Below, in pieces: positions 18,266 to 64,000 of a stretch of DNA of 64,000 nucleotides (its first letter is position 1; every line of letters starts with the position of its first letter). Source of the stretch: an uncultured Eubacteriales bacterium (lineage in GTDB: Bacteria > Bacillota_I > Bacilli_A > RF39 > UBA660); the NCBI GenBank assembly GCA_963536495.1, contig CAUTAF010000007.1, positions 5,803 through 69,802 on the forward strand. Direction: 5' to 3'. The notes beneath the pieces are model-generated. The model saw only the letters and a program-made list of their open reading frames with translations. It was not told the origin of the DNA and ran no database searches. The position numbers were made by a program, and so were the translations under genes.

Positions 18266-18299
18266 GGTAAGAGACTATTATAGTTTTTTACCCTTTTTT
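18265..18299 (+). terminator. Intrinsic terminator/attenuator hairpin in the 5' leader of the cassette
   Basis: GGGTAAgAgACTAT-t-ATAGTtTtTTACCC followed by TTTTTT, ~20 nt before the RBS of the 114-aa gene. Confidence 0.5.
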
Positions 18300-18320
18300 G
18301 TTGCTATATAGGAGGTAAAA

Positions 18321-18665: not shown

Positions 18666-18666
18666 A

Positions 18667-19443: not shown

Positions 19444-19448
19444 TAGAG

Positions 19449-19757: not shown

Positions 19758-19839
19758 TCCAAATTGAATTCTAAAAGAAAAGTAGATTTTTTGTAATATA
19801 ATTAAGTTTTCTAAAATATGAAAAAATTAATACTTTTTT

Positions 19840-33701: not shown

Positions 33702-33708
<7 letters not shown>
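30811..33708 (+). CDS. Cell-wall-anchored LRR surface protein, paralog 1 (signal peptide, LRR, Ig-like modules, TSP3-like Ca-binding repeat, coiled coil, NPKTG sortase signal)
   Basis: N-terminus 'MKKKLLIIVLLLVLLITS'. LRR runs such as 'LELSDNNIKSINIP...LNKNKLNNIDLSNSPNLEEL'. 'LLRDTDKDGIADKDDDDKDGDGYSN' (DxDxDG). C-terminus 'NPKTGIKTYSLVILFIIFISYIVFKKKKSYIR'. Confidence 0.7.
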
Positions 33709-33774
<66 letters not shown>

Positions 33775-33791
33775 GATAATAGAGGTATCTT

Positions 33792-37439: not shown

Positions 37440-37545
37440 AGTTAAAATTAACTTTATCTTTTTTATATTTACAATATAAATTGTAATTTTATTTTTTTAT
37501 TTGTCATAAAAAATATATATGGTATATTGCTATAGTGAGGTAAAA

Positions 37546-39828: not shown

Positions 39829-39901
39829 AGCTAAATTAACTTTATTTTTTCTTTTTAATAAAAATATATAAATATGATATACTATTATAGTAGAGGTATG
39901 T

Positions 39902-47248: not shown

Positions 47249-49762
47249 ATGAAAAGAAACGAAGTAGATAGAACAAAAATTAGCCCGATGATGAGACAAT
47301 ATCTTGAAGTAAAAGATGAATATCTAGATGCTATAGTATTTTATAGATTAGGTGACTTTTACGAGATGTTTTTTGAAGATGCAGTAATTGGATCTAAAGA
47401 ATTAGAACTTGCACTTACTGGAAGAGATGCATCGCTAGATGAAAGAGTGCCAATGTGTGGTGTTCCTGCTAAAGCATATAGTGTTTATGTAGAAAAGTTA
47501 GTTGAAAAAGGTTATAAAGTAGCAATATGTGAACAATTAGAAGATCCTAAAACTACTAAAGGTATGGTAAAAAGAGGAGTTATACAAGTTATTACTAAAG
47601 GAACTATACTTGATAACTTTATAGATTCTAAAACATCTAATTATATTGCTAATATATATGCTTTTTCATATTGTTATGGTATATCTTATACAGATATTAC
47701 AACAGGATATTTTTATGCTTTTATAATAGATAAAGATGTAGAAAAAACTATCTTAAAAGAAAATATTAAAGAAGTAATAGTAACTAGTAATACAAGTAAA
47801 GAAATAGTTAATAATTTAAGAAATAATAATGTTTTAGTTACGATAAGTGATGATATTAATACTAATCAAGAATATAGTTATTTATATAAAGATTTAGAAG
47901 ATGAAAGATTAAAAATAACAGCAAGTCACTTATTATCATATTTAGAATATGTTAAAAAAGGTGACTTAAAACATTTACAAAAAATCGTTAGTTTAAAAGC
48001 TAATAACTTCTTAGAATTTGATGATAACACTGTAAGAAATTTAGAATTAGTTAAGACATTAAGAACTAAAGAAAGAAAAAATTCTTTACTAGGTTTTATA
48101 GATAAAACTGAAACTGCTATGGGTTCTAGAGCTTTAGAATATAATTTACTTCATCCACTAAGAGATAAAAAAGAAATAGAAAAAAGATATGATCAAGTAG
48201 AAAAACTTTTAACAGAGTTTATTATATCTAGCGAATTAAAAGAAGTATTAAATAATATCTATGACTTAGAAAGAATAGTATCTAGAATATCTTATGGTAA
48301 TTTAAGTGGTAAAGATTTATTACAATTAAAAAATAGTATCTATTATTTAAAAGATTTAAAAAAAATAATTAAAGAGTTAAATTTTGATTATGAAATAGAT
48401 ACACTAGATGATTTATATAACTTATTAGAAAGTTCAATTAACGAAGATATACCTATATTATTAAATGAAGGTAATTTAATAAAGAGTGGTTATTCTAAAG
48501 AATTAGATGACTTAAGAGAAATTAAAAATAATTCTAAAAAATATATACTTGAACTAGAAAGAGCTGAAAGAGAAAAAACTGGTATAAAAACTTTAAAAAT
48601 ATCTTATAACAAAGTATTTGGTTATTATATAGAGATAACTAAAGCAAGTTTAAAAGATATTAAATTAGATGGTTATATTAGAAAACAAACATTATTTAAT
48701 GCAGAAAGATTTATTACAGAGGAACTAAAAGAAAAAGAAGATATTATTTTAAATGCTTCTTTAAAGATAAATGCTTTAGAATATGATTTATTTACTGAAG
48801 TTAAAGAAAAAGTTAAGACTTATTTAGAACCTATTCAAAAAAATGCTAAAAATATAGCACAGATTGATATGATATTATCTTTTGCAACAATAAGTAGTAA
48901 TCATTCTTTAGTAAGACCTAAGTTAAATGAAGAAAATATCGTCGATATAGAAAATGGTCGTCATTTAATAGTTGAAAGTGTTACTAATAACTATGTAGAT
49001 AATTCTATAAAGATGAAAGAAGATACATCTATACTTTTAATAACAGGACCTAATATGGCTGGTAAAAGTACTTATATGAGAGAACTTGCTTTAATAGTTA
49101 TAATGGCTCAAATGGGATGTTTTGTACCTGCTAAAAGTGCAAATATTATGATTTTTGATAAGATATTTACAAGAATTGGAGCAAGTGATGATTTAATATC
49201 TGGAGATTCTACATTTATGATAGAGATGAAAGAAGCTAGTTTTGCATTATCATCTGCTACTAAGAATTCTTTAATCCTATTTGATGAACTTGGAAGAGGT
49301 ACTGCAACATATGATGGTATGTCTCTTGCACAAGCTATGCTTGAATATATTCATAATGAAATAGGAGCTAAGACACTTTTTTCAACTCATTATCATGAAC
49401 TTACTAATCTTACAAAAGACTTAAAACACTTGAAAAATGTGCATGTAAAAGCTATAGTAGAAGATAAGAATATAATATTTTTACATAAGATAGAAAATGG
49501 AAGTGTAGATAAGAGTTATGGAGTTAATGTAGCTCATTTAGCAGGAGTTAATAAAGAGATAGTGACAAGAGCAACTGAGATTTTAAATACTTACGAAAAG
49601 AAGAAAAAAACAAAAGAGATAATACAAGATTCATTTGTTTTTGAAGAAGAAAAAGAAGAATCTAATTTATTAGAAAAAATAAAAGAAAAAGATTTAAATT
49701 CTATGACGCCTCTTGATGCACTTAATTTCTTATATGAATTAAAAAAGGATATGGAGGATTAA
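47249..49762 (+). CDS. mutS: DNA mismatch repair protein MutS
   Basis: N-terminal 'SPMMRQYLEVK', Walker A 'TGPNMAGKSTYMR' and 'DELGRGT'. Length is 837 aa. Confidence 0.9.
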   Translation: MKRNEVDRTKISPMMRQYLEVKDEYLDAIVFYRLGDFYEMFFEDAVIGSKELELALTGRDASLDERVPMCGVPAKAYSVYVEKLVEKGYKVAICEQLEDPKTTKGMVKRGVIQVITKGTILDNFIDSKTSNYIANIYAFSYCYGISYTDITTGYFYAFIIDKDVEKTILKENIKEVIVTSNTSKEIVNNLRNNNVLVTISDDINTNQEYSYLYKDLEDERLKITASHLLSYLEYVKKGDLKHLQKIVSLKANNFLEFDDNTVRNLELVKTLRTKERKNSLLGFIDKTETAMGSRALEYNLLHPLRDKKEIEKRYDQVEKLLTEFIISSELKEVLNNIYDLERIVSRISYGNLSGKDLLQLKNSIYYLKDLKKIIKELNFDYEIDTLDDLYNLLESSINEDIPILLNEGNLIKSGYSKELDDLREIKNNSKKYILELERAEREKTGIKTLKISYNKVFGYYIEITKASLKDIKLDGYIRKQTLFNAERFITEELKEKEDIILNASLKINALEYDLFTEVKEKVKTYLEPIQKNAKNIAQIDMILSFATISSNHSLVRPKLNEENIVDIENGRHLIVESVTNNYVDNSIKMKEDTSILLITGPNMAGKSTYMRELALIVIMAQMGCFVPAKSANIMIFDKIFTRIGASDDLISGDSTFMIEMKEASFALSSATKNSLILFDELGRGTATYDGMSLAQAMLEYIHNEIGAKTLFSTHYHELTNLTKDLKHLKNVHVKAIVEDKNIIFLHKIENGSVDKSYGVNVAHLAGVNKEIVTRATEILNTYEKKKKTKEIIQDSFVFEEEKEESNLLEKIKEKDLNSMTPLDALNFLYELKKDMED

Positions 49763-51148
49763 ATGACTTTAGAAGATATTTATGAAAATGTTAAAAATCC
49801 ACTTAATGATGAAGTGTTACAAGAAATATATGATAATTATCAAAAGCTTCCGACATTTTTTTTAATAGTAGGTAAAAAAACGAGTAATAAAACTTATGAT
49901 ATTTTAGAAAGAGATTATTACAATAAATTTTTGTTTTCTATTTGGAAAAATAGCATCTTAAATTTATCTCTTGAAAGAATAGAAGAGTTAGAAAAAAGAA
50001 ATAATTATAAAGATATAAGAAGAATAAGAGAGTTTTTAAAACAAGATAATACTAATTTAGATACTACTTATGATATAGCAAATTTTTTAGTTAATAATTC
50101 TTTAGATAAAGCTTATTTTTGTGATGTTAAAAATTTAATTAATCATAGATATATTCATACGATGAGTGGGAAAATCGATTTAGAAAAAGATGATGATTTT
50201 TTTGTTGATCATAGATTATATGTAAATATAGATAATGAAGATATATATCTTTTGGCACATAAATTTGTAGAAAAATGTAGAGAAAAAGATATACCATTTT
50301 ATTTTAAATTTAAAGATTCAGATAATAGACAAGATAATTTTGTAATTTATTCTGATACTAAAAATTTAATAAAATATATGGAGTGTTTAGATGAAGTGTT
50401 TAGTCAAAATAAAAATATTTCTAATACTTCTAATTCTTCTTTAATGTTTACTGGTAAGATTAATGAAAATTATTCAATAGGAGATGAACCTTTCCAAAAG
50501 TCAGAAAAACTAGCATCGTTTAATGGTATAAGAAGTAAGTCGATTGATAATGCTATGAAAAAAACTATAAAATATTGGTTATATAAGAATCAATATAGAA
50601 AAGTATCAAGAAAAATAGATGGTCAAGAAAAAATAATGGATTTTAAAGAATATGTAGCAAGTAATATAGTAAAACTATTATCTGAAGATATGTTTTATGA
50701 AAAAGATGAATATAAAATTTATCATACATTAAAAAAATCAGCTTTTATTGGAAGAAATAAAGAAAAACTAACTAAAAGTATTGCTAGTGAAATAGATAAA
50801 TATATTAATAATAAAGATATGAGTTTAATAAAAGTTTACGAAGCAGATGATTTAGATCCATCTAGATTTGAAAGTGAAGAAATAAAAAAAATATTTGAAA
50901 AAAAATTAGAAACTATGAAGTATAAAGTGAAAGAACAGCTTGGAGTAGTATCTACTGATATTATAGAAAAGTATATTAATACAACATTAACTGATAAAAT
51001 ATTACATAAATTTGATAACTGTAAAGATATTTTTGAATTGTTTTTAAAAGAAGAATTTAAAAATAATTATATTGATATAGAAAAACCATGTTTTAATGTA
51101 TGGACTAAAGAAAAATTTAAAGAAAATAAAGAAGAAAAACATATATAA
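49763..51148 (+). CDS. Hypothetical 461-aa protein translationally coupled to mutS, occupying the usual mutL position
   Basis: Its ATG directly abuts the mutS TAA. No motif was recognised. Coding quality is good. Confidence 0.4.
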   Translation: MTLEDIYENVKNPLNDEVLQEIYDNYQKLPTFFLIVGKKTSNKTYDILERDYYNKFLFSIWKNSILNLSLERIEELEKRNNYKDIRRIREFLKQDNTNLDTTYDIANFLVNNSLDKAYFCDVKNLINHRYIHTMSGKIDLEKDDDFFVDHRLYVNIDNEDIYLLAHKFVEKCREKDIPFYFKFKDSDNRQDNFVIYSDTKNLIKYMECLDEVFSQNKNISNTSNSSLMFTGKINENYSIGDEPFQKSEKLASFNGIRSKSIDNAMKKTIKYWLYKNQYRKVSRKIDGQEKIMDFKEYVASNIVKLLSEDMFYEKDEYKIYHTLKKSAFIGRNKEKLTKSIASEIDKYINNKDMSLIKVYEADDLDPSRFESEEIKKIFEKKLETMKYKVKEQLGVVSTDIIEKYINTTLTDKILHKFDNCKDIFELFLKEEFKNNYIDIEKPCFNVWTKEKFKENKEEKHI

Positions 51149-51212
51149 GATACATAATTTGACAAACGAAGATAATCTAATTACAATATAAAGCACTTGG
51201 AAAGAGGTAATA

Positions 51213-51905
51213 ATGACAGATATATTTACGAGTGATCAAGCTATAAAAGTAGCTGAAGAAGATCCCTCCATTATTTTTGAACTAATTAAAACTGATAATG
51301 ATGAGTTATTAAATCATATGTTAGATGAATCTTTAATAGATGTTAATTTAGTTTCTAGTAATAACGATAGTTTAGCAATAAAACTATTAAAATCTGCTAA
51401 ATATGAATTGGTTTTAAAAGTAATAAAGAATAAAAATTGGAATGTTAATTATCAAAATGATGATAAAGAAACTTTTGGACATATACTTGCTAAAATAAAT
51501 AATGTAGCAGTAGTACCAATATTTAAAGAATTAAAGAAAAATAAAAACTTTGATATTAATATCCGTAATAAAGATGATAAGACTATTTTTGATATTAGTG
51601 TAGAAAGTCATAATGCTTATGTATCTACTAAAATAATAGAAGATGAAAGATTTAATGATATAAATATATTTGAATTTTTAAAATTTTATGAAACTTATAT
51701 AGATACTAATGAATATGGTAAATATTCAAAAATTAATATGATAGAATCTATCTTAACTATGGATGGAAGATATGTTAATACGAGAATGCAAGAATTACTT
51801 AACCATCTTAAAGATAATTTTAAAAACATTAAAAAAGATATAGAAAATGATGACTATAATTTATTAAAATCAATTATTAAAGAGTGTATTTACCAATATA
51901 TGTAA
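51213..51905 (+). CDS. Hypothetical 230-aa protein with degenerate ankyrin-like repeats
   Basis: Repeats of about 33 aa such as 'ETFGHILAKINNVAVVPIFKELKKNKNFDINIRNKDDKTIFDISVE'. Confidence 0.3.
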   Translation: MTDIFTSDQAIKVAEEDPSIIFELIKTDNDELLNHMLDESLIDVNLVSSNNDSLAIKLLKSAKYELVLKVIKNKNWNVNYQNDDKETFGHILAKINNVAVVPIFKELKKNKNFDINIRNKDDKTIFDISVESHNAYVSTKIIEDERFNDINIFEFLKFYETYIDTNEYGKYSKINMIESILTMDGRYVNTRMQELLNHLKDNFKNIKKDIENDDYNLLKSIIKECIYQYM

Positions 51906-51950
51906 AATTTCTAGTCATTATTTTAAAACTGTGTTAAAATATGAAAAGAA

Positions 51951-51984
51951 CAAGTGGGAATTAAAAATCCCACTTGCTTTATTT
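51951..51984 (+). terminator. Hairpin terminator/attenuator preceding the rimP-nusA-infB operon
   Basis: CAAGTGGGA-attaaaaa-TCCCACTTG followed by CTTTATTT. It lies inside the GTG-initiated ORF (51931) given by the ORF track. Confidence 0.45.
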
Positions 51985-51993
51985 GGAGGAGAA

Positions 51994-52248
51994 ATGAAGG
52001 AAAAACTTATAGAAGCTTTAGGAAATAAATTAGATAGCTATAAAGTATTTATCGATGATGTATTTGAAGAAGATGAAGGAAATAATCATTATTTAAGAGT
52101 CGTAGTAGATGCAGATTTTATTATAGATTCTAACTTGATATATGAAGTTAGTAAAGTTATCGATGAAGAAATAGATAAATTAGATTTAATAGAAGATTCG
52201 TATATATTAGATATATATTCAAAAGAAAAAGGTGAAATAAATGAATAA
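51994..52248 (+). CDS. rimP: Short RimP-like ribosome maturation factor (N-domain only)
   Basis: An ATG with a GGAGGA RBS after the hairpin. Its position upstream of nusA and 'YILDIYS' (compare RimP 'Y.LEVSSPG') support the call. Confidence 0.4.
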   Translation: MKEKLIEALGNKLDSYKVFIDDVFEEDEGNNHYLRVVVDADFIIDSNLIYEVSKVIDEEIDKLDLIEDSYILDIYSKEKGEINE

Positions 52249-53326
52249 TAAAGAATTTTTAAAAGCAGTTGAAATATTAACTAAAGAAAAAGGTTTAGAT
52301 AAAGATGTAATATTTGATGCTATGGAATTAGCTTTAACTAGTGCATATAAAAAGAATTTTCATTCTTTAAGTAATGTTAAAGTTTTTATAGATAAACAAA
52401 AAGGTGATATTAAAATCTATTCTTTTATAACAGTAGTAGAAGATGAAAAAATAAATGATGAAGAATTTAATCCAGAAACTGAAATTACTTTAACAGAAGC
52501 AAGAAAAATAGATAAGTTAAAAGAAGTAGGAGATACTTTCGATACGGAAATAACACCAAAAGATTTTGGAAGAATTGCAACTGCTACTGCTAAACAAGTA
52601 GTATTACAAAAAATAAAAGAAGCAGAAAGAAGTTCTATCTTAAAAGATTTTGAAGATAAAGAAGGAGAAATGCTTTTAGGAACAGTAGAACTTGAAGATA
52701 GTGATAACTATTATATAGATTTTGGTAGAATAAAAGGATTACTTCCAAAGAATGAATGTATACCAAAAGAAGTTATTAAAATAGGTCAAAAATTAAAAGT
52801 ATATGTTACTAAAATAATAAATGATAAATCTTTAACTATTTTACTTTCTAGAAAACATTATAATTTTGTTAAAAGACTTTTTGAAATGGAAATACCTGAA
52901 ATAATGGATGGAACTGTTTTAATTCATGCAGTAGCAAGAGAAGCAGGTGTTAGAAGTAAAGTATCAGTTGAATCTACAAAAGCTAATATAGATCCAATTG
53001 GAGCTTGTGTAGGTGAAAAAGGTATTAGAATTTCTAATATTATAAAAGAACTACATGGAGAAAAAATAGATATAATTCCATATGATAAAAATATTGAAAG
53101 ATATATAGCAAATGCTTTATTACCAGCAGAAAACTTATCAGTAATCGTAGAAGACGATAATAAAAACGAAGCAATTGTTTTTGCAAATGATGATAACTAT
53201 TCTTTAGCAATAGGTAAAAAAGGTATAAATATAAAACTTGCTGCAAGACTTACTAGATTTAGACTTGATATTAAAACTCAAAAAGAAGCAAGTGAAATGG
53301 GAATAAATTTCAAAAATGAAAACTAA
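52241..53326 (+). CDS. nusA: Transcription termination/antitermination factor NusA
   Basis: N-terminal domain, an S1 domain and two KH domains ('GACVGEKGIRISNI'). Length is 361 aa. Confidence 0.9.
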   Translation: MNNKEFLKAVEILTKEKGLDKDVIFDAMELALTSAYKKNFHSLSNVKVFIDKQKGDIKIYSFITVVEDEKINDEEFNPETEITLTEARKIDKLKEVGDTFDTEITPKDFGRIATATAKQVVLQKIKEAERSSILKDFEDKEGEMLLGTVELEDSDNYYIDFGRIKGLLPKNECIPKEVIKIGQKLKVYVTKIINDKSLTILLSRKHYNFVKRLFEMEIPEIMDGTVLIHAVAREAGVRSKVSVESTKANIDPIGACVGEKGIRISNIIKELHGEKIDIIPYDKNIERYIANALLPAENLSVIVEDDNKNEAIVFANDDNYSLAIGKKGINIKLAARLTRFRLDIKTQKEASEMGINFKNEN

Positions 53327-53576
53327 GAAAATACCATTTAGAACTTGTATTGTCACAAAAGAAGTTTTACCTAAACAAGAATTGCTTAGAGTAGTTATAA
53401 ATAAAGATAAAGAAGTAAGTATAGATATAACTGGTAAACAAAATGGTAGAGGAGTATATCTTAAAAAAGATATAGATGTTATAAATAAAGCAAAAAATTT
53501 AAAAATACTAGATAAGAAATTAGAAGTAGAAATAGAAGAAAAATTATATGAAGATTTAATTAACCTAATAAAATAA
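53316..53576 (+). CDS. ylxR: YlxR/RnpM family RNA-binding protein (DUF448)
   Basis: 'PFRTCIVTKEVLPKQELLRVV...NGRGVYL' and its position between nusA and infB. Confidence 0.7.
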   Translation: MKTKKIPFRTCIVTKEVLPKQELLRVVINKDKEVSIDITGKQNGRGVYLKKDIDVINKAKNLKILDKKLEVEIEEKLYEDLINLIK

Positions 53577-53585
53577 GAAAGGTAG

Positions 53586-55715
53586 GTGATTAGCATGATG
53601 AGTATTTTAGAATATTCAGTAGATGTGAATTTAGATGTAGAAAAGATATTAGCTTTGTGTGATAGTTTAGGAATAGATTATATAGATGAGAATTCTACAT
53701 TATCTGATGAAGAAATAATACTATTAGATAATAATTTATCTGAAATAGAAAATATGGAAGATGAAGATCATTATGAAGAAGAAATAGAAGAACACGATGA
53801 AGATGAAGAAGAACAATTAGTTGAAAAATTTGGTTCTAGAAAGAAAATAGAAAAGATTAAGACTAAGACTTCAACTAGAGATGATAATAAAGCTAATTTT
53901 CAATCAGAAAAGAAAAACTTATATAAACATAAGAAAAAATTAAAATCTAATGTTATAGGAGAAGATGATAACTTCGTTGTATATAAAGAAGGTATGACAG
54001 TAATGGATATTGCTACAATTATGAAAGTAAATCCAGCTGAACTTATTAAAAAACTTATCTCTCTTGGAGTAATGGCTAATATGAATGCATCTTTAAGTTA
54101 TGAAGTAGCTGAAATATTAGTAGCAGATTACAATAAAACATTAAAGAAAATAGAAGATACTGATATATCTAAATTTGATGAAGATTTTGAAATAGCAGAT
54201 AAAGAAGAAGATTTAGTTGAAAGAGCACCTGTTATAACAATAATGGGTCATGTTGATCATGGTAAAACTTCTTTACTTGATGCTATTAGAGAAAGTAATG
54301 TTGTAAGTGGTGAAGCTGGAGGTATAACACAAGCTATATCTTCTTATCAAATAAATTATAAAGGAAAACCTATTACTTTTATAGATACACCAGGGCATGC
54401 TGCATTTACTGAAATGAGAGCAAGAGGTGCTAAAGTTACTGATATTATTATCGTTATAGTAGCAGCAGATGATGGAGTTAAACCACAAACAGAAGAAGCA
54501 ATAGATCATGCTAAAGCAGCTGGAGTACCAATAATAGTTGCAATTAATAAAATTGATAAACCAGATGCTAATAAAGAAAAAACACTTGAAGAAGTAGCAA
54601 GAGCTGGACTTCAACCAGAAGTTTGGGGAGGAGATGTAATAGTTAATTACATTTCTGCTAAGACTAAAGAAGGAATTAACGATTTACTTGATAACATTTT
54701 ACTTGTTAGTGAAATGCAAGGATATAAAGCTAATCCTAATAGATATGCTATAGGAACAGTTATAGAAGCGTATAAAGATGTTAAGACTGGAGTAGTAGCA
54801 AGTGTCTTAGTACAAAATGGAACTCTTAGAATTGGAGATCCTATTTGTTGTGGAACTATTTTTGGAAAAATAAGAAATATGAAAAATGATCTTGGAGAAT
54901 CAATAACTGAGGCACTACCTTCAACTCCTGTAGAAATAATAGGTTTATCTGAAGTACCAGATGCTGGAGATAAATTTATGGCATTTGAAACAGAAAAACA
55001 AGCTAAAGAAGTATCAGATAAGAGAATAGCAAGATTAAAATCAGATGATTTAGGTAAGACTAATATGAGTTTAGATGAATTATTCTCTGCTATTAAAAAA
55101 GGAGAAAAGAGTCTAAATGTTGTCTTAAAAACTGATACTAAAGGATCTTTAGAAGCAATTAAACAAAGTTTAGCTAAGATAAATATCGAAGGTGTAGAAA
55201 TCAAGATAGTAAGAGGAAGTGTTGGAGCAATATCTGAAAGTGATATAGTACTTGCAAAAGCTAGTGAAGCTATAGTTATAGGATTTAATGTAAGACCAAG
55301 TAGCAATGTAGTAGAAATAGCTAAGACTAAAGAAGTACAAATTAAACTATATGATATTATCTATAAACTTATAGAAGACTTAGAAAAATCTATTTTAGGA
55401 AGTCTAGATCCTGAATATGAAGAAGTAGTTTTAGGATCAGCTGAAATCTTAGCAGTATTTAAATTCTCTAAAGTTGGTAATATAGCTGGATGTAGAGTGT
55501 TAGATGGAATTATTAAAAATACATCTAACTGTAGAGTTATAAGAGATGGTGTAGTTATTTATACTGGAAAGATTAAGACTTTACAAAAAGAAAAAGAACA
55601 AATAAAAGAAGTAGCAAAAGGATTCGAATGTGGAATTACTTTAGAAAATTATCAAGATATTAAAGAAAAAGATATTATAGAAGCATACGAATTAAAGGAA
55701 ATTAAAAAGATATGA
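53586..55715 (+). CDS. infB: Translation initiation factor IF-2
   Basis: '[17 protein letters not shown]', 'DTPGHAAF' and 'NKIDK'. Acidic N-terminal region. Confidence 0.95.
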
Positions 55716-56032
55716 GTGTAAGTTTAAGTAGAATAGAAAGTACATTTAAAAAAGAATTATCTTATATACTTGAAAATGCTAAAAACGATTATTTAAAAGC
55801 TATGACAATAACTGATATAGATTTAACTAGTCAAAAAGAATATGCTAGAGTTTATTTTATGACTCATAGAAATGTTGAAAAAACTATTAAAGAAGTAAAG
55901 AGGTCTATGGCTTATATAAATAAAGTTATAAGTAAAAAATTAAATTTAAAAAAATTACCAAAAATCGTATTTATAGAAGATAATTCTTATGAATATGGTA
56001 AGGAAATAGAAGAGAAACTAAAAAATATTTAG
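55712..56032 (+). CDS. rbfA: Ribosome-binding factor A
   Basis: 106 aa immediately after infB. The KH-like fold pattern 'RIESTFKKELSYIL' is present. Confidence 0.8.
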   Translation: MSVSLSRIESTFKKELSYILENAKNDYLKAMTITDIDLTSQKEYARVYFMTHRNVEKTIKEVKRSMAYINKVISKKLNLKKLPKIVFIEDNSYEYGKEIEEKLKNI

Positions 56033-56086
56033 TTTCTTTTTTCTTTTATAAATGTTACTATATTATATAGAATAAGGAGAGTAATA

Positions 56087-57337
56087 ATGAAAAAAATATT
56101 GATAGTATTTGCATTAATATTATTACCTTTTGTAACTTTAGCAGATGAAGAAGAAAAGAAAAATACAACACTATTAAATAAAAATTTAATAGTGGAATGT
56201 ATATATAGTGATGGAGGATTATATTCTTATGAATATAATGAATCTGAAAATACATTTATTACTAATAGACAAGAATTTTTAGGTACAGGTAAAAAAGTAG
56301 TTCCTTCTAATATTATCTTTTTATCAGAACTTACATCAATTAATGAAACCCTTACAGTAGTAGATAAAGATTTAACATGTAAAAGATATATTTATAGTGG
56401 TATTTCTAAAAGAGAAGATGAAGAAGCTAAAAAAGATAATGTCCAAAATATTTATATGTTTATTAAAGGAAGTAATTCAAAAGATAATCCTATTAAATTA
56501 GAAGATGCATCAATTGATAGCTATACTGGTAAATGGTATACACTTGGTATTCCTTTAGCAAAAACAGAAGTTAGAAAAGCTTTAGATACTGCAATTATAG
56601 AACAAAAAAGATATGAATTAGTAAATCAAAGATATCGTTTGTTAGATACAGATACTATAAATCCTAAACAAGTATGTCATTTTGAATCAAATAGTAAAAG
56701 TGATAATATTTCTACTAAAAAAGATATATTAACTGCTCAAATATATTCTAATCATACTTTGATAAAAACAAGTGATGATTATTATAATTTACTTACAAAA
56801 GATGAATCTAAGTTAATAGAAGATATATGTGGTACTAGTGATAAAGATAAAATATATATAAATGATTCTACAGTATCAGCAACTGGAGATTCTAGTGGTG
56901 GAGCAAAGATTGCTGCAAAAACTTATGATAAAGAAAGACAAACTCGTTTAACACTTAGTGAAAAAGAAAGTAAAGTTAATTTTTTAGAATATAAAAAAAT
57001 TAGTGAAAATAAAATGGAAGATAAAGAAGTAAATGATAAACTATGTGAAACGATTCCAAATGTTGCAAAAGTATTAAGAGATATTATTAAATTTGCAAGA
57101 ATAGCTATTGGAGCATTAGTAATAATTCTTATAGCAATAGAAATACTTCATTTTGTTAGTAGTTCTAATCCAAGTGATCAACTTCCAATTACAATTAAAA
57201 AGATTAGTAATCGAATTATATTAATGGTTGTTATATTGTTGTTACCATTAATTACTAATATTATTGTTACTATCTTAAAAAGTGCAAATACGATAGAAAC
57301 ATCAACTATACAAGTTATAGATTGTTTGTTTAAATAG
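56087..57337 (+). CDS. Secreted/membrane-anchored 416-aa protein (Sec signal peptide, Cys-containing ectodomain, two C-terminal TM helices)
   Basis: 'MKKILIVFALILLPFVTLA|DEEE'. C-terminal 'IAIGALVIILIAIEILHFV' and 'IILMVVILLLPLITNIIVTIL'. Confidence 0.4.
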   Translation: MKKILIVFALILLPFVTLADEEEKKNTTLLNKNLIVECIYSDGGLYSYEYNESENTFITNRQEFLGTGKKVVPSNIIFLSELTSINETLTVVDKDLTCKRYIYSGISKREDEEAKKDNVQNIYMFIKGSNSKDNPIKLEDASIDSYTGKWYTLGIPLAKTEVRKALDTAIIEQKRYELVNQRYRLLDTDTINPKQVCHFESNSKSDNISTKKDILTAQIYSNHTLIKTSDDYYNLLTKDESKLIEDICGTSDKDKIYINDSTVSATGDSSGGAKIAAKTYDKERQTRLTLSEKESKVNFLEYKKISENKMEDKEVNDKLCETIPNVAKVLRDIIKFARIAIGALVIILIAIEILHFVSSSNPSDQLPITIKKISNRIILMVVILLLPLITNIIVTILKSANTIETSTIQVIDCLFK

Positions 57338-57345
57338 GAGATAAT

Positions 57346-59589
57346 ATGCCAATATTAGATATTTTAAAAACAATTGATATAGCACAACTATCTGTAGAAA
57401 TAATAGGTTTATTAGCAAGTAGATGGTTTATACTAAATGGTATTATTTTTATATTAAGATCACTTAGTTATTTTGTTGATTCTCAATTTGTAAATTTAAT
57501 TGGTATGATTTATAAATATTTCACATTACTTTTAAAAGGTGAAATGTTTAATGAACAGATAGTATCACAGTTATTATCTAGTATATATGTATTTATTGGT
57601 CTTATTATCTTTTTTAGATTAGCTACTGTATTAATTAAATATTTAGTAAATCCAGAAACTATAGAAAGTTCTGTTGATAAAACTGGGTTATTTTCTGGAC
57701 TTGTTAGAAGAATAGTAATAGGTAGTATTATGATTGCGTTAATACCATTTATTTTTTCTACTTTAAATAGACTTCAAGTAGCAATAGTAGAAGATAATGT
57801 TATTCAAAATATATTTATTCAAAATGAATCATTTAAAAATTTTAATAAAAGACATGCATTAAATGGTGGTCAATATTTAGCTAATTATGTTTTAGCAGGT
57901 TTTATAAGACCCGTTAATAATAGTTCTAGTTCAGTGAAAATGAGTTATGAAGCTATGAAAAAATCAGCTAATCCAGATTTAATTAATATAAATGCTGGAG
58001 TAGTACCAGGAGTAGTAGTTAAATATAGTTATACTTATTATTTTATAGTTTCTACATTCGTTCTTTTTATTGTATTTAAAACAATGATAGGTTATGCACT
58101 TGATATTATTACGAGATTCTTTAAAACTCTTTTATATCAATTAATGGCACCTATTGCCATAGTAGAATATATGATAAGTGGAAATGGTGGAGTATTTGAA
58201 AAATGGAAAACTAGTGTAATAGCTAATTATTTATCTTTATTTGTTAGAATGTTATCAATTTGGTTTTTAGTATTTATACTTTCATTAATGACGGCAGATG
58301 GACTTCCTAATGGTAATTTACTTAAAACAGATGATGATTTATTAAGAGCAATAATAGTTTTAGCGTTAATTGCATTTATGAAAGATTTACCAAGTTATGT
58401 AGGTCAGATAATTGGATTTGATTTAAGACAAGAAAGTTCTGCTATGTCTATGGTAAGTGGAGCAGCAACTGCAGTGCTTGGAGCAGCAGGAGCAGGTCTT
58501 ATGGCGGGAAGTGGAATGATAGGTAATTCTTTAAGAAGTATAGGTGGTACTTTAAATAGAAATATTGGAAGTAAAATAGCTGGAGCTACAGCTGCAGCTC
58601 AAAATGCTCGTAATAAAGGAAGACAGATGGGTCTTACTGGCGAAGAGTTAAGGCAAGCAAGTAGAAATGCTTTAAGAGATTATGGAAATCAACAAGTTGC
58701 TGAAAGAAGAAGTAGAGGTAATGCTTTACAAAGAATGAGAAATACTGCAGCAGAAGGTATAAGAAATAATGCAATGAATGATGTTAGAGATTCGGTTAGT
58801 AGTATTACAAGTATTGCAGATCATATACCAGCTCTTCATCAAACAGGAGTTCCAGCTGCAGCACAAAATTTATTTAATACTGTAACAGCTAATAATAATG
58901 GACAAAGACAAAATCAAACTCCACCAGAAACTCAAAATCAAAACACTAACTCAGGAGCAAATAGTAATCAAGTTTTATTAAGACCAAATAGAGCAAATCA
59001 TTTAAATTTACTTAATGGAAGTAATTTAAATAATATTAATGCAACAGGAAATTCACTTACTAGAGATGAATCTATTGAAAATATGACTGATTTCTTGTTT
59101 AGAGCAGATAATAATCAAAGTTATAGTGATTATTTATCTAATGTACAAAATGATAATTTAGAAACAAATAATGTTCCAGCAGAAGATAGAAATGTTATTT
59201 TAACAAGAGCAGGAGTTACTGATAGTAACGCAACAGTTATTAGAAATTCTCATACTTTAGAAGAAATAGCTAGAAATATATCAAGTAATTCTAATGGAAC
59301 AATAAGTTATGAACAAGCTTATGAAACAACTAGAACTTATATTGAAGGAGCAGGTATAAGAGCACAAAGTAGATATAGTATAACTGATTCTAATGGAGGA
59401 GTTAATACTGTTGATATACCTTGTGTTGATCAAAATGGTAACTTCTTAAGAACAGGAGAATATACTTTAACTAATGATAATATTAAAGATATAACAGATG
59501 ATATTAAAAATCATTATTGGGGTAGATCTGCAGAAGATTACTTTGATACTAATTTAGAAGAAAATAATGGAGGAGTATCTAGAAAATAG
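57346..59589 (+). CDS. 747-aa polytopic membrane protein: ~7 TM N-domain, Gly/Ala-rich segment, Asn/Gln-rich variable C-terminal domain (VirB6/TrbL-like topology; possible delivery protein)
   Basis: Hydrophobic helices through residue ~400. 'GAATAVLGAAGAGLMAGSGMIGNSL'. The C-terminal 300 aa are low-complexity N/Q/S/T-rich with a structured end. The orphan cassette follows downstream. Confidence 0.4.
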   Translation: MPILDILKTIDIAQLSVEIIGLLASRWFILNGIIFILRSLSYFVDSQFVNLIGMIYKYFTLLLKGEMFNEQIVSQLLSSIYVFIGLIIFFRLATVLIKYLVNPETIESSVDKTGLFSGLVRRIVIGSIMIALIPFIFSTLNRLQVAIVEDNVIQNIFIQNESFKNFNKRHALNGGQYLANYVLAGFIRPVNNSSSSVKMSYEAMKKSANPDLININAGVVPGVVVKYSYTYYFIVSTFVLFIVFKTMIGYALDIITRFFKTLLYQLMAPIAIVEYMISGNGGVFEKWKTSVIANYLSLFVRMLSIWFLVFILSLMTADGLPNGNLLKTDDDLLRAIIVLALIAFMKDLPSYVGQIIGFDLRQESSAMSMVSGAATAVLGAAGAGLMAGSGMIGNSLRSIGGTLNRNIGSKIAGATAAAQNARNKGRQMGLTGEELRQASRNALRDYGNQQVAERRSRGNALQRMRNTAAEGIRNNAMNDVRDSVSSITSIADHIPALHQTGVPAAAQNLFNTVTANNNGQRQNQTPPETQNQNTNSGANSNQVLLRPNRANHLNLLNGSNLNNINATGNSLTRDESIENMTDFLFRADNNQSYSDYLSNVQNDNLETNNVPAEDRNVILTRAGVTDSNATVIRNSHTLEEIARNISSNSNGTISYEQAYETTRTYIEGAGIRAQSRYSITDSNGGVNTVDIPCVDQNGNFLRTGEYTLTNDNIKDITDDIKNHYWGRSAEDYFDTNLEENNGGVSRK

Positions 59590-59658
59590 ATACTTCTTTA
59601 TTTAATGAAATAATATTATTGAGGAATGTAAAATGAATTTAAAAGTGTATAAGGTTAT

Positions 59659-59759
59659 TGTATGGATTAGAAGTTAATAATGAAGAAATTTTGCCTATTA
59701 AAAAAAGGTATATTTAAAGATGAAAAAATATTTTCAAAATAGAATTATAATAGAAAATA
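59659..59759 (+). pseudogene. Remnant of the last ~33 codons of the HExxH-protein gene (homolog of 19343-19443)
   Basis: About 90% nt identity with the 3' end of the 18667-19443 gene. Only a 14-codon ORF (MNLKVYKVIVWIRS) remains. Confidence 0.6.
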
Positions 59760-59765
59760 ATAAAG

Positions 59766-60083
59766 GTGATTAATATGAAATTAAACATTGAAGAATTAAA
59801 ATATTTAAGAGGTTCAAAATTAGACGATGGATATAGACTTGTGTATAAAAAAAATAATCATTTTGAAATTAGTAGTTATTCTAAAACTATAGAAGGATTT
59901 ATATGTGAATTAAATGATTATAATCCATATAGTTTATATGATGATGAAAAGAAATTTATTTCTATTGAAAATTTATTAGAAGAAATAGCACAAAAATATA
60001 ATGAAAAAGAAGTATCTATTTATAAAACAGATGGTACTTTGGTTTCATCATATAATCAAGATGATATAAATAAATTTAAATAA
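59766..60083 (+). CDS. Small 105-aa protein, paralog of 19449-19757 (orphan immunity/partner candidate)
   Basis: About 83% aa identity by eye ('MKLNIEELKYLRGSKLDDGYRLVYKKNN...'). The same RBS context is present. Confidence 0.55.
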   Translation: MINMKLNIEELKYLRGSKLDDGYRLVYKKNNHFEISSYSKTIEGFICELNDYNPYSLYDDEKKFISIENLLEEIAQKYNEKEVSIYKTDGTLVSSYNQDDINKFK

Positions 60084-60142
60084 TTTTTATATTATTTTGA
60101 TGTCTATAAGATATAATAAATAAGATTTCAAAAATAAAATAT

Positions 60143-60172
60143 AAAAAGCTATTGTTTTTACAATAGCTTTTT
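60143..60172. terminator. Bidirectional terminator
   Basis: AAAAAGCTATTG-ttttta-CAATAGCTTTTT. Confidence 0.6.
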
Positions 60173-60210
60173 AGTTTAGATTAAAATAAAAAAATATCTC
60201 TTTTGAGATA

Positions 60211-60384
60211 TTAAATTAATCCTAACTTTCTGAATGTTCTTAATTCTTTTGCACTAATTCTTATTTTAGTTCCATTAATTTTTACAACTTGAAGGTTTAA
60301 TCCTTGTTTTTTTCTAGTTGCATTTAACGCATGAGATCTTAAGTTTTTGAAGTTAGGTTTTCTACTTGTTACATTAATTGCCAT
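60211..60384 (-). CDS. rpmB: 50S ribosomal protein L28 (bL28); not in the ORF track because it is under 60 aa
   Basis: Reverse-strand translation MAINVTSRKPNFKNLRSHALNATRKKQGLNLQVVKINGTKIRISAKELRTFRKLGLI (57 aa). It has the 'SHALN' core and an RBS 'AGGAGGAAT' upstream. Its own terminator is at 60193-60212 (AATATCTC-aaaa-GAGATATT on the minus strand). Confidence 0.65.
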   Translation of the reverse strand: MAINVTSRKPNFKNLRSHALNATRKKQGLNLQVVKINGTKIRISAKELRTFRKLGLI

Positions 60385-60456
60385 GATTCCTCCTTGTTTA
60401 ATTAATTACTTTAAGATTTTAGCATATTGCTTTATAATAGTCAATAAAGAGGCATT

Positions 60457-63318
60457 ATGTATACACCAATATATTTAAAAACAAATTACTCATTTTTAGA
60501 AAGTACTATTAGAATAGAAAAACTAATAGATTTTGCTGTTAGTAAGAACTTTAAATATGTATGTATTACAGATATAAATATGATAGCTGTTATGGAGTTT
60601 TATCATCTTGCTAAAAAAAATAATTTAATACCTGTTGTAGGTTTAGAAATAACTTTAAATTCATTAAAACTCCTTGCTTTTGGTAATTATTATTCACTTA
60701 TTTCTCTTGCTACTATTACTAGTGAAAAAGAATTAGAAATAAGTGATTTAGATAATAGTTTAACATATGTCTTACCATATGATTCAAAAGAATTACTAGA
60801 TATATTAAAATTAGATAATATTTATTTAGGTTATAAGAATGAAAAAGAAGAAATAGAACTTAGTTTATTATCAGATAAGATTATCTTTTTACCCAAACAC
60901 ACATCACTAACTAAAAAGGATGCAGAAAACTTTAAATATTTATCTCAGTTAAAGGGTGAAAAAATAAATAAAGAAGAGATTAATAACTATTATTTAGATA
61001 ATTATGATAAAAAAGAAGAGACAGAAAACTTCTTATCTAACTTTGTTTTAGATATTAAAAAAGAAGAAGATGTACTTCCAATATATGATATAAATATAGA
61101 TGCTAAGAAGAGTTTAATAGAATTATCTATTAAAGGACTTTGTTTAAGACTTAATAAAGATTATAAAGATATAGATCTTAAGTATAAAGAGAGATTAAAA
61201 AAAGAATTAACGGTAATAAATTCTATGAATTTTGCTAATTACTTTTTGGTAGTTAGTGACTTTATAAGATATGCTAAGAAAAATAAAATATTAGTATCTC
61301 CTGGAAGAGGATCTGTTGTGGGTAGTTTAGTAGCATATACTACTGGAATAACAGATATAGACCCTTTAAAATATAATTTATATTTTGAAAGATTTTTAAA
61401 TGCTTCTAGAATTACTATGCCTGATATCGATACAGATTTTCCTGATATTTATAGAGAAGATGTAATAGAATATGTTAAAGATAAATATGGAAAAGAAAAC
61501 GTATCTGGAGTAGTGACAGTATCTACTATGCAAACTAAACAGTTAGTTAGAGAAATATCTAAGTTATTTAATATAGATAATAAAATAGTAGAAAGAATAT
61601 TAAAACTAGTGGATTCAAAAACACCACTTAAAGAAGCAGTAGATAAGAGTTTAACTTTAAAAGAGATATTTAATTCTAGTTTAGAACTTAGAAAAATATA
61701 TGATTTATGTATATTCTTTGATTCTTTTCCACATCATACTTCAATTCATGCATCCGCTATTATAATATCTAATAAAAACTTAAAAAATATAATACCTTTA
61801 ATTAAAAGTAACGACTTATATTTAACATCTTATACTATGAATTATTTAGAAGAGTTAGGTCTTTTAAAAATGGACTTTTTAGGTATTAAAAATTTAACTA
61901 CTATTATGAATATAATAGAAGATATAAAATTAAATGAAAATATAGAAATAGATTTTAATAAGATAGATTTAGATGATAAATTAACTTTAAATTTATTTAA
62001 AAATGCTAATACTAAAGGTATATTTCAGTTTGATAGTTATGGTATGAGAAGATTCTTATCTAATTTAAAAGTAGATAGTTTTTCTGATATATATGCCGCT
62101 ATTGCTTTATATAGACCTGGTCCTCAAGAAAATATACCTAGTTATATAAGAAGAAAAGAAGGTAAAGAAAAGATAGAATATTTAGACAAATCTTTAGAAA
62201 ACATCTTATCTTCAACATATGGTATTTTAATATATCAAGAACAAATTATGGAAATAGCTCATATCTATGCAGGATTTACTTTGAAAGAAGCAGATTCATT
62301 TAGAAAAGCCGTATCTAAAAAGAACTTAAATGATTTAAAAAACTTAGAAGAAAGTTTTATATCTTCTTCAAAAAAATTAAATAGAGATCCTTTAGTTACT
62401 AAAAAGATATTTGATTTGATATTAAAATTTGCAAATTATGGATTTAATAAATCACACTCTGTTGCTTATTCTGTAGTAGCATTTAAACAAGCTTATTTTA
62501 AAGCTCATTATAAAGAGTATTTTTATAAAGAAATATTATTAAACGAAATAAACGATAAAGAAAAAACAGAAGATTATATTAAAGAAGCTAAAGTTTTAGG
62601 AATAGAGATAAAAGGACCTAGTATTTTAAAATCTGCAACTAATTATTCATTGGAAAAAAATACTTTATATTATCCACTTATTGGAGTTAAAGGAATAGGT
62701 TTAGTTTTAGCAGAAAAGATAAATTCTCTTAATAAAACTTCTGATATATATGATATGTTTACTTCTTTATATGAAATAGGAGTTAGAGAAAGTACATTTG
62801 AAACTTTAATTAAAGTAGGAGCTTTTGATTTATATAAAATAAATAGAAAAAGTTTAATTGAAGCTTTATCTTCTCTTATTAATTATGCAGAATTAAAAGC
62901 AAATTACTTCTCTGAAGATATAAGACCAGTTATAGTTAGTTATAAAGATTATACTGAGATAGAAAAACTTGAGATGGAAAAAGAATTACTTGGATTTTAT
63001 TTGTCTAGTTATCCGACATCTTTATATAAAAAAGAAGGTTTTATAGAAGTAAAAGATATTGATAAGTTTATAAATAAAGATGTAACAATCGTTCTTTATA
63101 TTAATAAGATTAAAGAAATAATTACTAAAAACGGAGAAAAGATGGCATTTGTTGATGCTAGTGATAAAGATAAAGTATCTTTAACTATTTTTCCAAATAC
63201 TTATAAGGATATAGAAATAAATAAAAAAGATATAGTGGAAGTGAATGGACAGGTAGTTATTAGAAATAGTGAAAGACAAATAATAGTGAAAACGATAAAA
63301 AAACTAACAAGTCTTTAA
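60457..63318 (+). CDS. dnaE: DNA polymerase III alpha subunit DnaE (short form, 953 aa) with a degenerate PHP domain
   Basis: Polymerase palm motif 'SPGRGSVVGSLVAYTTGITDIDPL'. The N-terminus 'PIYLKTNYSFLES...ITDINMIA' follows the PHP pattern but lacks the metal-binding His residues. C-terminal OB fold. Confidence 0.8.
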   Translation: MYTPIYLKTNYSFLESTIRIEKLIDFAVSKNFKYVCITDINMIAVMEFYHLAKKNNLIPVVGLEITLNSLKLLAFGNYYSLISLATITSEKELEISDLDNSLTYVLPYDSKELLDILKLDNIYLGYKNEKEEIELSLLSDKIIFLPKHTSLTKKDAENFKYLSQLKGEKINKEEINNYYLDNYDKKEETENFLSNFVLDIKKEEDVLPIYDINIDAKKSLIELSIKGLCLRLNKDYKDIDLKYKERLKKELTVINSMNFANYFLVVSDFIRYAKKNKILVSPGRGSVVGSLVAYTTGITDIDPLKYNLYFERFLNASRITMPDIDTDFPDIYREDVIEYVKDKYGKENVSGVVTVSTMQTKQLVREISKLFNIDNKIVERILKLVDSKTPLKEAVDKSLTLKEIFNSSLELRKIYDLCIFFDSFPHHTSIHASAIIISNKNLKNIIPLIKSNDLYLTSYTMNYLEELGLLKMDFLGIKNLTTIMNIIEDIKLNENIEIDFNKIDLDDKLTLNLFKNANTKGIFQFDSYGMRRFLSNLKVDSFSDIYAAIALYRPGPQENIPSYIRRKEGKEKIEYLDKSLENILSSTYGILIYQEQIMEIAHIYAGFTLKEADSFRKAVSKKNLNDLKNLEESFISSSKKLNRDPLVTKKIFDLILKFANYGFNKSHSVAYSVVAFKQAYFKAHYKEYFYKEILLNEINDKEKTEDYIKEAKVLGIEIKGPSILKSATNYSLEKNTLYYPLIGVKGIGLVLAEKINSLNKTSDIYDMFTSLYEIGVRESTFETLIKVGAFDLYKINRKSLIEALSSLINYAELKANYFSEDIRPVIVSYKDYTEIEKLEMEKELLGFYLSSYPTSLYKKEGFIEVKDIDKFINKDVTIVLYINKIKEIITKNGEKMAFVDASDKDKVSLTIFPNTYKDIEINKKDIVEVNGQVVIRNSERQIIVKTIKKLTSL

Positions 63319-63364
63319 ACTATAATGGAATATATGGTAGAATATTAAACGTAAAGGAGCAAAG

Positions 63365-64000
63365 ATGGAAGTTGTTTTTAAGACTAATGATTATTTATTA
63401 GCATGGTATTTACTATTTAAACCATCTACTGATACAGAATTTCAAAAGATTAAATTAAAACTTTGGAAAAATTATACAGATGAATATAAAAAAATAGAAA
63501 AAGATAATGTGAAAATAATGCAAGATACTGATAATTTTATACCAAGTAATGATTTGATATACGATAAAATATTTGAAACTGATTATTTTAAAGAATATAA
63601 AAAGAAAACTGATAAGAATATGTTTACCTTAAGAGAAGCATATGATATTAATAAAAAATTTATAGATAAAGAATTAAAAGCTATATTAAAACATAAGATT
63701 AGAAATGTTTATGAAGTAATAATTATGTATCCAGAGTTAAATATATCAGAATATGTTAAAAATAACCCTAATAAAGTTATAGTATGGGGTAGAAAAGAAG
63801 ATGAAGAAGATTCACTTTCTTCAGTATTTAAGATACTTTATACAGCTTTAAAATACGAATTAAGTGATATAAAAATAACAAGAGAAAATATACTTAGTTC
63901 TATAATAGATATGGTTATAACTAATGAATTACAATCAAGATTATTAAATAAATCTTGTTATAATGAAGGTTTTAAAAAACTGCTAGAAATTAAACATACT
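63365..64000 (+). CDS. Hypothetical protein; the 3' end lies beyond the window
   Basis: The frame is open from the ATG at 63365 to the end of the window. An AAGGAG RBS is present. No motif was recognised. Confidence 0.35.
   Translation, partial: MEVVFKTNDYLLAWYLLFKPSTDTEFQKIKLKLWKNYTDEYKKIEKDNVKIMQDTDNFIPSNDLIYDKIFETDYFKEYKKKTDKNMFTLREAYDINKKFIDKELKAILKHKIRNVYEVIIMYPELNISEYVKNNPNKVIVWGRKEDEEDSLSSVFKILYTALKYELSDIKITRENILSSIIDMVITNELQSRLLNKSCYNEGFKKLLEIKHT

Follow-up and report, generated by a model that had tools for sequence, protein, structure and literature searches.

A conserved chromosomal gene pair with VirB2-like and VirB6-like features in low-G+C gut Bacillota

Two adjacent genes encoding putative membrane proteins, here called gene A (56087-57337, forward strand, 416 aa) and gene B (57346-59589, forward strand, 747 aa), were analyzed in a stretch of 64,000 nucleotides (the window) of contig CAUTAF010000007.1, from an uncultured Eubacteriales bacterium. 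Gene B starts 8 nt past gene A, and both genes follow rbfA (55712-56032; Pfam RBFA, 69.5 bits). A first-pass annotation made from the sequence alone had described a Sec-secreted protein of 416 aa with two C-terminal transmembrane (TM) segments and a 747-aa protein with a polytopic N-terminal domain, a Gly/Ala-rich stretch and an Asn-rich tail; the open reading frames (ORFs) were exactly as described, and hydropathy and composition agreed with the described layout of both proteins. The same annotation had left both genes without a family. This still holds formally, since the curated thresholds failed for every family tested and the pair therefore belongs to no named family, but it no longer holds for their nature: gene A carries a VirB2-like hairpin of the T4SS_pilin superfamily and gene B is VirB6-like, as judged from the comparisons presented below. 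The interpretation that we favor, with a rough probability of 0.6, is that the pair is a domesticated two-gene surface module derived from a type IV secretion system (T4SS) and fixed in the chromosome of a gut Bacillota lineage of about 22% G+C.

Gene A encodes a predicted Sec-type signal peptide (aa 1-19, 56087-56143, forward strand), a beta-rich, putatively extracellular N-terminal domain of about 300 aa (56144-57043, forward strand) and a C-terminal hairpin (aa 320-416, 57044-57337, forward strand) made up of Cys320, a first TM helix, a basic loop, a second TM helix and a tail with Cys413. The signal peptide was located by hydropathy scan as MKKILIVFALILLPFVTLA, with cleavage predicted after TLA19 and DEEE as the following residues; it has no lipobox, and an equivalent N-terminal signal peptide was present in all 21 aligned A homologues (the family alignments comprised 21 members from related loci). 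Four cysteines were invariant in this alignment: C38 and C98 in the N-terminal domain, C320 just outside the first TM helix, and C413 in the short tail past the second. Because C320 and C413 are both expected outside the membrane, a disulphide between them probably clamps the two ends of the hairpin. The N-terminal domain had no match in Pfam, NCBIfam or PDB fold searches. A paralogue in one related locus (L008) has added N-terminal Listeria-Bacteroides (internalin-type) surface repeats (PF09479, E 7e-30), with which surface exposure of the N-terminal domain of A fits. The AlphaFold2 (AF2) model of A was of low confidence (pLDDT 58.8) and gave only noise in Foldseek.

The TM helices of the hairpin were placed at residues ~331-357 and ~373-397 by hydropathy and at 324-358 and 362-400 in the AF2 model, and they are separated by a short basic loop with the family consensus GNxEEELPKxKK; signal peptide, two-TM hairpin and short basic loop, on the cytoplasmic side, together are the topology of T4SS_pilin proteins. 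PF18895 (T4SS_pilin) was weakly matched by 4 of the 21 A-family members (best E 8e-4), and NF045890 (pLS20_p028 conjugation transmembrane protein) by 2 of 21. When the A-family profile was searched against 1.84 billion representative proteins (E <= 1e-3), 3053 proteins were retrieved, 92 of them at E <= 1e-30, and nearly all those listed among the latter aligned over most of the profile; at 50% identity the A family counts at least 92 representatives. Remote matches (E 1e-10 to 1e-12) covered the hairpin only (profile positions ~320-423) and included proteins of 90-180 aa; 29 of 44 remote matches were PF18895 proteins, such as P0173 (122 aa), which scored 36.8 bits against a PF18895 gathering score of 26.6. 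A hidden Markov model of the hairpin, built from the family found in the related loci, gave 41-68 bits for the remote proteins, at most 7.5 bits for shuffled and at most 13.4 bits for reversed sequences, so the signal does not come from composition alone. The hairpins of A and the PF18895 proteins have a common motif, (I/V)PILLI..L...D..K.V..G...E..K.....R.I.AV.IFF.P, often bracketed by cysteines, from which the A protein of the window has diverged at several positions (P to G, D to E, K to H). A C-terminal hairpin was also found in other long proteins: P0135 (341 aa), P0136 (595 aa) and P0155 (544 aa). On this sequence evidence, the C-terminal hairpin newly places gene A in the VirB2-like T4SS_pilin superfamily.

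Gene B starts with a VirB6/TrbL-like polytopic domain (aa 1-365, 57346-58440, forward strand) with six strong TM segments by hydropathy, all within residues 17-352; the AF2 secondary structure was all-helical from residue 12 to 356, and the domain has the topology of VirB6/TrbL proteins (polytopic, five or more hydrophobic helices). It is followed by a Gly/Ala-rich segment and an Arg-rich linker (aa 366-470, 58441-58755, forward strand; A 19%, G 15%, R 11%), of which the first part is a possible seventh TM segment and the second would be cytoplasmic according to the positive-inside rule. A DLxQExSA motif and the G/A-rich stretch after it were kept throughout the B family. The Asn/Thr/Ser-rich C-terminal extension (aa 471-747, 58756-59589, forward strand; N 17%, scanned from aa 470) is clade-specific: it could be aligned in the close clade only, was modeled with pLDDT 25-40 and had no match in Pfam or NCBIfam scans.

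The best family matches of gene B were to conjugation proteins of mycoplasmas: NF045848 (MMCAP2_0566 family conjugal transfer protein; E 4.8e-10, model positions 19-320 of 322) and NF045889 (Mbov_0396 family transmembrane protein of an integrative and conjugative element (ICE); E 3e-4). Among the 21 B-family members, NF045848 was matched by 13 (best E 2e-16), NF045889 by 9 (best E 1.7e-10) and Pfam TrbL_4 by one (E 2e-4); the Pfam scan of the B protein of the window was empty, with neither TrbL nor TrbL_4. In a Foldseek search of 350,542 PDB chains with the AF2 model (pLDDT 47.8 overall, 50-78 over the membrane domain), the three best matches of B were all TrwI/VirB6 of plasmid R388 (probabilities 0.99, 0.98 and 0.77), with ~325 aligned columns and a TM-score of ~0.5 on the target. 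Sequence searches of the PDB with B alone and with the profiles of both families found nothing relevant. The fold ranking agrees with the independent sequence evidence, according to which gene B encodes a distant VirB6/TrbL-type protein with the architecture known as extended VirB6; the VirB6/TrbL/ConG likeness proposed in the first-pass annotation is supported by the NF045848 and NF045889 matches and by the TrwI ranking.

The two genes were strictly paired. ORFs were called and clustered in the first 19 related loci, and A was directly upstream of B on the same strand in all of them; the pair was also intact in every genome retrieved from a set of species representatives (15 of 15) and in every metagenome contig examined, over B identities from 99% down to ~25%. 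Homologues of A and B were few, all from uncultured gut metagenome-assembled genomes (MAGs) named "Bacilli bacterium", "Bacillota bacterium" or similar, from goat, rabbit, chicken and human (Hadza) gut samples, and every one of them was annotated as "hypothetical protein". Exact look-ups of the B protein of the window and of protein P0012 retrieved no record. Close relatives (B ~80% identical) had the rbfA-A-B arrangement of the window, and distant relatives (B 25-35% identical) the order glmM...topA-A-B-polA-fpg-truB, the usual context among the related loci, which places truB elsewhere and indicates that A and B change location together. Replacement of the truB-ribF-rpsO genes expected after rbfA by the module describes the close clade only and does not extend to the distant relatives with their topA/polA context; truB, ribF and rpsO were all absent from the window.

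The slot between B and the downstream rpmB was variable: a 105-aa orphan ORF in the window, a 507-aa GT2 glycosyltransferase in L002-L004 (L002 12381-13904), the same gene split into ORFs of 296 and 197 aa and probably a pseudogene in L005 (12386-13908), and nothing in L006. In distant relatives polA is directly downstream of B. Its content differs even among close relatives, so that the spacer cannot be counted as a conserved partner of A-B.

Several other genes were observed near the pair in related loci. Some distant relatives have a second tandem A-B pair, together with a ~300-aa bitopic protein (L001 4308-5231; L008 7424-8431; L013 4157-5005; L016 11266-12297) and a coiled-coil protein (L008 12084-13319 and others). 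The bitopic protein has a VirB8/PrgL-like topology (charged N-terminal tail, one TM segment, ~230 aa outside); family scans gave no match for either protein, and the bitopic protein is absent from the window. A soluble protein of 1359-1610 aa lies downstream of A-B in both genomic contexts (L002 14461-19293; L006 12712-17544; L001 16855-20934) and is missing in the window and in L005. Its sequence contains some ten helical repeats with "GY(I/V)P" at their ends and, at the C-terminus, a weak HD domain. As a possible part of the module it was set aside: it has no TM segment, P-loop or PDB match, only the weak HD match. L020, a distant relative, has MurD-like and MurL genes near the pair (17433-20159), so this very AT-rich lineage appears to make peptidoglycan and would not be a wall-less mollicute.

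Pairwise dN/dS (omega), calculated between the window and three close relatives, was 0.12-0.30 for gene A, 0.10-0.17 for the N-terminal domain of gene B (the lowest in the module) and 0.39-0.51 for the C-terminal half of gene B (aa 366-747); nusA and infB gave 0.04-0.13. The pair is under purifying selection. It is also hypervariable between alleles. With respect to L006, nusA, infB and rbfA were 97-99% identical and the dnaE region 96.8%, whereas A-B was only 75-89% identical, with an abrupt drop at the end of rbfA (~55,950) and a recovery at rpmB (~60,190). Synonymous divergence (dS) was raised in this island as well (0.52 for A and 0.37 for B vs. 0.08-0.14 in the flanking genes), which suggests that recombination brought in a divergent allele, and not only that the proteins evolved faster. 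The allele of the window was about equidistant from those of L002, L005 and L006. Such a variable island is typical of surface-exposed loci under selection.

As regards the sequences flanking the pair, an AT-rich hairpin spans the rbfA stop codon (56004-56046, forward strand; 19-nt arms, 84% complementary, 5-nt loop) and is followed by a T-rich sequence. It was found by inverted-repeat detection and missed by the terminator scan, having too few G-C pairs; it may be a weak terminator between rbfA and gene A. A promoter-like site (TTTATA-17-TAGAAT, 56045-56073, forward strand) upstream of gene A is a candidate only, such sites not being enriched here (38 found vs. 40.8 expected from shuffled sequence), and a ribosome-binding site (AAGGAG, 56074-56079, forward strand) lies 7 nt ahead of the gene A ATG. 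Downstream, the variable spacer (59590-60210) forms the right edge of the divergent island and holds the orphan ORF (59766-60083, forward strand, 105 aa), which encodes neither a signal peptide nor a TM segment, and a strong bidirectional terminator (60142-60173, terminator scan). Conserved sequence resumes at the convergent rpmB (ribosomal protein L28, 57 aa; 60211-60384, reverse strand), in a stretch 95% identical to L006; the rpmB orthologue in L002 gave a faint Ribosomal_L28 match. The orphan and the convergent rpmB were thus found after gene B as first annotated. The G+C content of A-B was like that of the surroundings, except for the stretch coding for Gly/Ala.

The window as a whole has ~22% G+C and reads cleanly in genetic code 11; an alternative code was ruled out, TGA being the stop codon in 5 of 42 long ORFs. 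Around the pair the genes are, in order, mutS (47249-49762), a HopA1-like ORF, an ankyrin-like ORF, rimP, nusA, ylxR, infB, rbfA, A, B, the orphan ORF, the terminator, rpmB and dnaE (60457-63318). The HopA1-like ORF (49763-51148, 461 aa) abuts the mutS stop codon and matched the Pfam HopA1 effector family (24.4 bits vs. a cut-off of 22.7), as did its orthologue in L002-L004. The ankyrin-like ORF (51213-51905, 230 aa) had weak ankyrin-repeat matches and a faint one to the model of the Dot/Icm effector AnkG. Genes resembling effectors of the eukaryote-directed type are unusual in a gut Bacillota MAG. Four tandem paralogues (30811-43846; 965, 1215, 769 and 1314 aa) with matches to leucine-rich repeats (LRR), Rib and bacterial thrombospondin type 3 (TSP3) repeats probably encode surface adhesins, and one homologue was present in L006. 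A T2SSF (PilC/ComGB-like) gene lies beside a prepilin peptidase (A24) gene (15008-17207), with no PilB/ComGA-type ATPase or pilin gene evident adjoining them. A cluster of glycan or teichoic acid type (211-8411) comprises a GT2 glycosyltransferase, an ABC-2 permease and ATPase, a HAD-like hydrolase and several further ORFs of 300-640 aa without a strong Pfam match in a pooled scan. The remaining genes of the window were housekeeping genes (der, the dnaK operon, ftsAZ and others).

A and B were compared with several known systems. MMCAP2_0566 is a coding sequence in an ICE of Mycoplasma mycoides subsp. capri GM12 (PMC3053259). The mycoplasma ICE proteins (NF045848, NF045889) are the best sequence models for the N-terminal domain of B, over nearly their whole length, and their hosts, too, are low-G+C Bacillota relatives; unlike B, they are borne on ICEs beside TraE/VirB4 and TraG/VirD4 (PMC3053259), and their ~300-320 model positions leave the 380-aa C-terminal extension of B, which scores below their cut-offs, uncovered. 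In extended VirB6 proteins of monoderm MPF_FA systems, a polytopic N-terminal domain is continued by a long hydrophilic tail without structure, for 700-900 residues in total (PMC12857230). The 747-aa B protein has this same architecture, known from the TcpH and ConG type, and its top fold matches were to R388 TrwI; unlike B, all these proteins occur within full conjugation operons, and no significant direct sequence match of the B family to the TcpH/ConG/TrwI type was found, Pfam TrbL_4 being matched in 1 of 21 relatives only. For gene A, the proteins of PF18895/NF045890 share the two-helix hairpin, the common motif and often the bracketing cysteines, but their typical members are 90-180 aa long and lack the extra extracellular domain of ~300 aa.

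The systems closest in logic to A-B are the archaeal Ced/Ted systems, which serve DNA exchange, followed by the T4SS of Patescibacteria. Ced and Ted are domesticated T4SS with adjacent VirB2-like and VirB6-like genes and a VirB4-like ATPase gene that is sometimes several genes off (PMC9905601); their parts are the pilin CedA1/TedC, the VirB6-like CedA/TedA and the VirB4-like CedB/TedB, and the signal peptide of TedC is cleavable (PMC9905601). Like them, A-B is chromosomal, has no relaxase and consists of a VirB2-like two-TM gene adjoining a VirB6-like gene in a non-mobile context, and the ATPase need not adjoin. The differences are that Ced/Ted have a VirB4-like partner, with none found within 10 kb of A-B, that the archaeal pilins have ~100 aa in total vs. 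the 300-aa surface domain of A, and that the host is an archaeon and not a monoderm bacterium. A relation of the CedA1/CedA type between the hairpin of A and the N-terminal domain of B was rejected (hhalign probability 6.5%). The T4SS of Patescibacteria is chromosomal and essential, has no relaxase and includes arrays of PF18895 pilins (10.1101/2025.01.22.634366; PMC12857230). It resembles A-B in its chromosomal location, lack of a relaxase, PF18895 pilins, VirB6 homologue and hypervariable pilins (10.1101/2025.01.22.634366; PMC12857230). It differs in having VirB4, VirB3 (PrgI) and often a type IV coupling protein near the pilins, none of which is near A-B, in its small arrayed pilins vs. one long pilin-like and one VirB6-like gene, and in its phylum, the host of A-B belonging to Bacillota.

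In conjugation machines, VirB6 makes up the platform or protochannel at the centre of the membrane complex. In R388, VirB6 is a central pentameric platform and the proposed recruiter of the VirB2 pilin from the membrane (PMC12857230). Given this proposed role of VirB6, a VirB2-like and a VirB6-like protein would form a coherent functional core. According to the mechanism that we propose for the domesticated surface module, the Sec pathway would export A, with its N-terminal domain outside the cell and its hairpin retained in the membrane. B would then dock A and either oligomerise or polymerise it or merely present it, and the product would be a strain-variable surface structure, possibly a conduit, in contact with another cell or the host. 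Physical interaction of A with B, a fibre or contact structure, any cargo and any drive by a distant VirB4-type ATPase are all steps that we infer. A bolder version of the same interpretation, which we consider doubtful, is that in this walled, monoderm lineage (contigs up to 0.84 Mb) a conjugation machine has been cut down to an adhesin-bearing VirB2-type pilin and an extended VirB6 platform. The two would form a contact organelle that varies between strains and that the bacterium needs to attach to its host or to a partner cell, or for exchange with either, with an ATPase either distant or dispensed with.

Several observations weigh against the T4SS-derived surface module. The VirB4-type ATPase is the one universal T4SS component, and searches of the window and of the 10 kb around the pair in every locus found none. 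The Pfam, NCBIfam and PHROGs scans of the A protein of the window were empty, including for T4SS_pilin, and its link to that family is transitive, through relatives and the family profile. The hairpin proteins of the pLS20_p028 family, from monoderm plasmids, are annotated as transmembrane components and not as pilins. Small pilins have ~70-150 aa when mature and pack helically; A has 416 aa, and a VirB2-type helical fibre would become crowded if each subunit bore a domain of 300 aa; A may therefore not polymerise and may be a membrane-anchored or minor subunit instead of a fibre-former. B scored below the curated NCBIfam cut-offs (39.2 vs. 90 bits for NF045848; 20.3 vs. 70 for NF045889) and is therefore related to those families without belonging to them. 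Its fold match to TrwI had an E-value of 0.03, from a model of low confidence (pLDDT 47.8), and this E-value alone is unconvincing.

Alternatively, A and B could supply just the membrane portion of a whole type IV system with its other genes dispersed (VirB4, VirB3- or VirB8-like, perhaps a coupling protein), which would actively move DNA (Ced-like import or exchange) or proteins or metabolites (Patescibacteria-like) between cells. This is tentative, and we give it odds well short of even. In Ced and Ted the pilin gene adjoins the VirB6-like gene and the ATPase may be encoded apart from them (PMC9905601), the T4SS of Patescibacteria sets a precedent for an essential chromosomal system with PF18895 pilins and no relaxase, the bitopic protein beside the duplicated pairs of distant relatives has a VirB8-like topology, and candidate eukaryote-directed proteins (HopA1-like and ankyrin-like) are encoded 5 kb upstream of the pair. 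However, no ATPase of unexplained function was present in the window or in any ±10 kb flank: the Walker A neighbors of the pair were ABC transporters, aminoacyl-tRNA synthetases and polymerases, the motif scan of the first 19 loci revealed no Walker A protein of unexplained function, and the Pfam gene tables of the flanks of later loci likewise held none. The bitopic protein is missing from the window and has no family match, and the HopA1-like and ankyrin-like genes are tied to the pair by proximity alone. A search of the literature for RFN20 together with type IV secretion found nothing relevant. We consider it unlikely, at a lower level, that the T4SS likeness is an artefact of hydrophobic composition and that A and B form an unrelated, lineage-specific membrane complex (a transporter or an envelope factor). 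All matches do lie in TM-rich regions and below curated cut-offs, spurious 7tm_1 matches occurred among the same proteins, both AF2 models were of low confidence and both family profiles were empty in the PDB sequence search. Against this, the shuffled and reversed controls abolished the signal, remote matches reached E 1e-10 to 1e-12 against 1.84 billion proteins, VirB6 ranked first, second and third in the fold search of B, and two independent proteins indicate different parts of one machine that are known to cooperate.

The first-pass annotation had offered two explanations of its own: a remnant of a conjugative element, and a delivery or anchoring system for the adjacent cassette. It had also stated that no ATPase or relaxase is present, which proved correct for the window. 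Both explanations fared badly. That the pair is a decaying ICE remnant landed after rbfA would fit with the mycoplasma ICE proteins as best family matches of B and with the lack of an ATPase or relaxase nearby, but it is very improbable: both genes were intact and paired in every relative, in housekeeping contexts, and omega was well below 1. Moreover, the Pfam annotation of the window and flanks contained no integrase or coupling protein, and VirD4 and relaxase were absent from the window and from the 10 kb around the pair in any locus; the flanks of A-B had no meaningful repeats and no att-like repeats, Rfam found no RNA genes and no tRNA target over 50000-64000, tblastn of A and of the N-terminal domain of B gave no match in 72,556 plasmids, and the alignments of both families, used for pattern scans of the IMG/VR viral contigs, retrieved no relative. 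The pair thus shows neither the machinery or att sites nor the patchy distribution with decay of a conjugative element, and its G+C content does not set it apart from its surroundings. A device dedicated to exporting or anchoring the product of the downstream cassette is even less credible as an explanation of the pair. The orphan ORF is near, on the same strand and not preceded by a terminator, but the gene in that position varies (orphan, GT2, split GT2, nothing or polA), even between close relatives, and the orphan protein has no feature for export or membrane insertion, neither signal peptide nor TM segment.

In A-B, a VirB2-like hairpin protein and an extended VirB6 form a chromosomal pair that is strictly conserved in this Bacillota lineage. 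VirB2-type pilins are held to be absent from Gram-positive T4SS, with Patescibacteria as the sole exception (PMC12857230). If the T4SS-derived surface module is the correct interpretation, conjugation parts would have been domesticated independently for a third time, after Ced/Ted and the system of Patescibacteria, and both VirB2-type pilins and T4SS domestication would extend to monoderm Bacillota. It would also mean that pilin hairpins are able to carry large surface domains. In the bolder version, that of a contact organelle, A-B would be for Bacillota what the Patescibacteria and Ced systems are for their hosts, and monoderm bacteria would have a second example of VirB2-type pilins. The allelic island between otherwise near-identical strains is a natural marker for strain typing, on which selection by phages, immunity or partner specificity may act, and the module would provide a handle on cell contact by prevalent, uncultured gut bacteria with small genomes.

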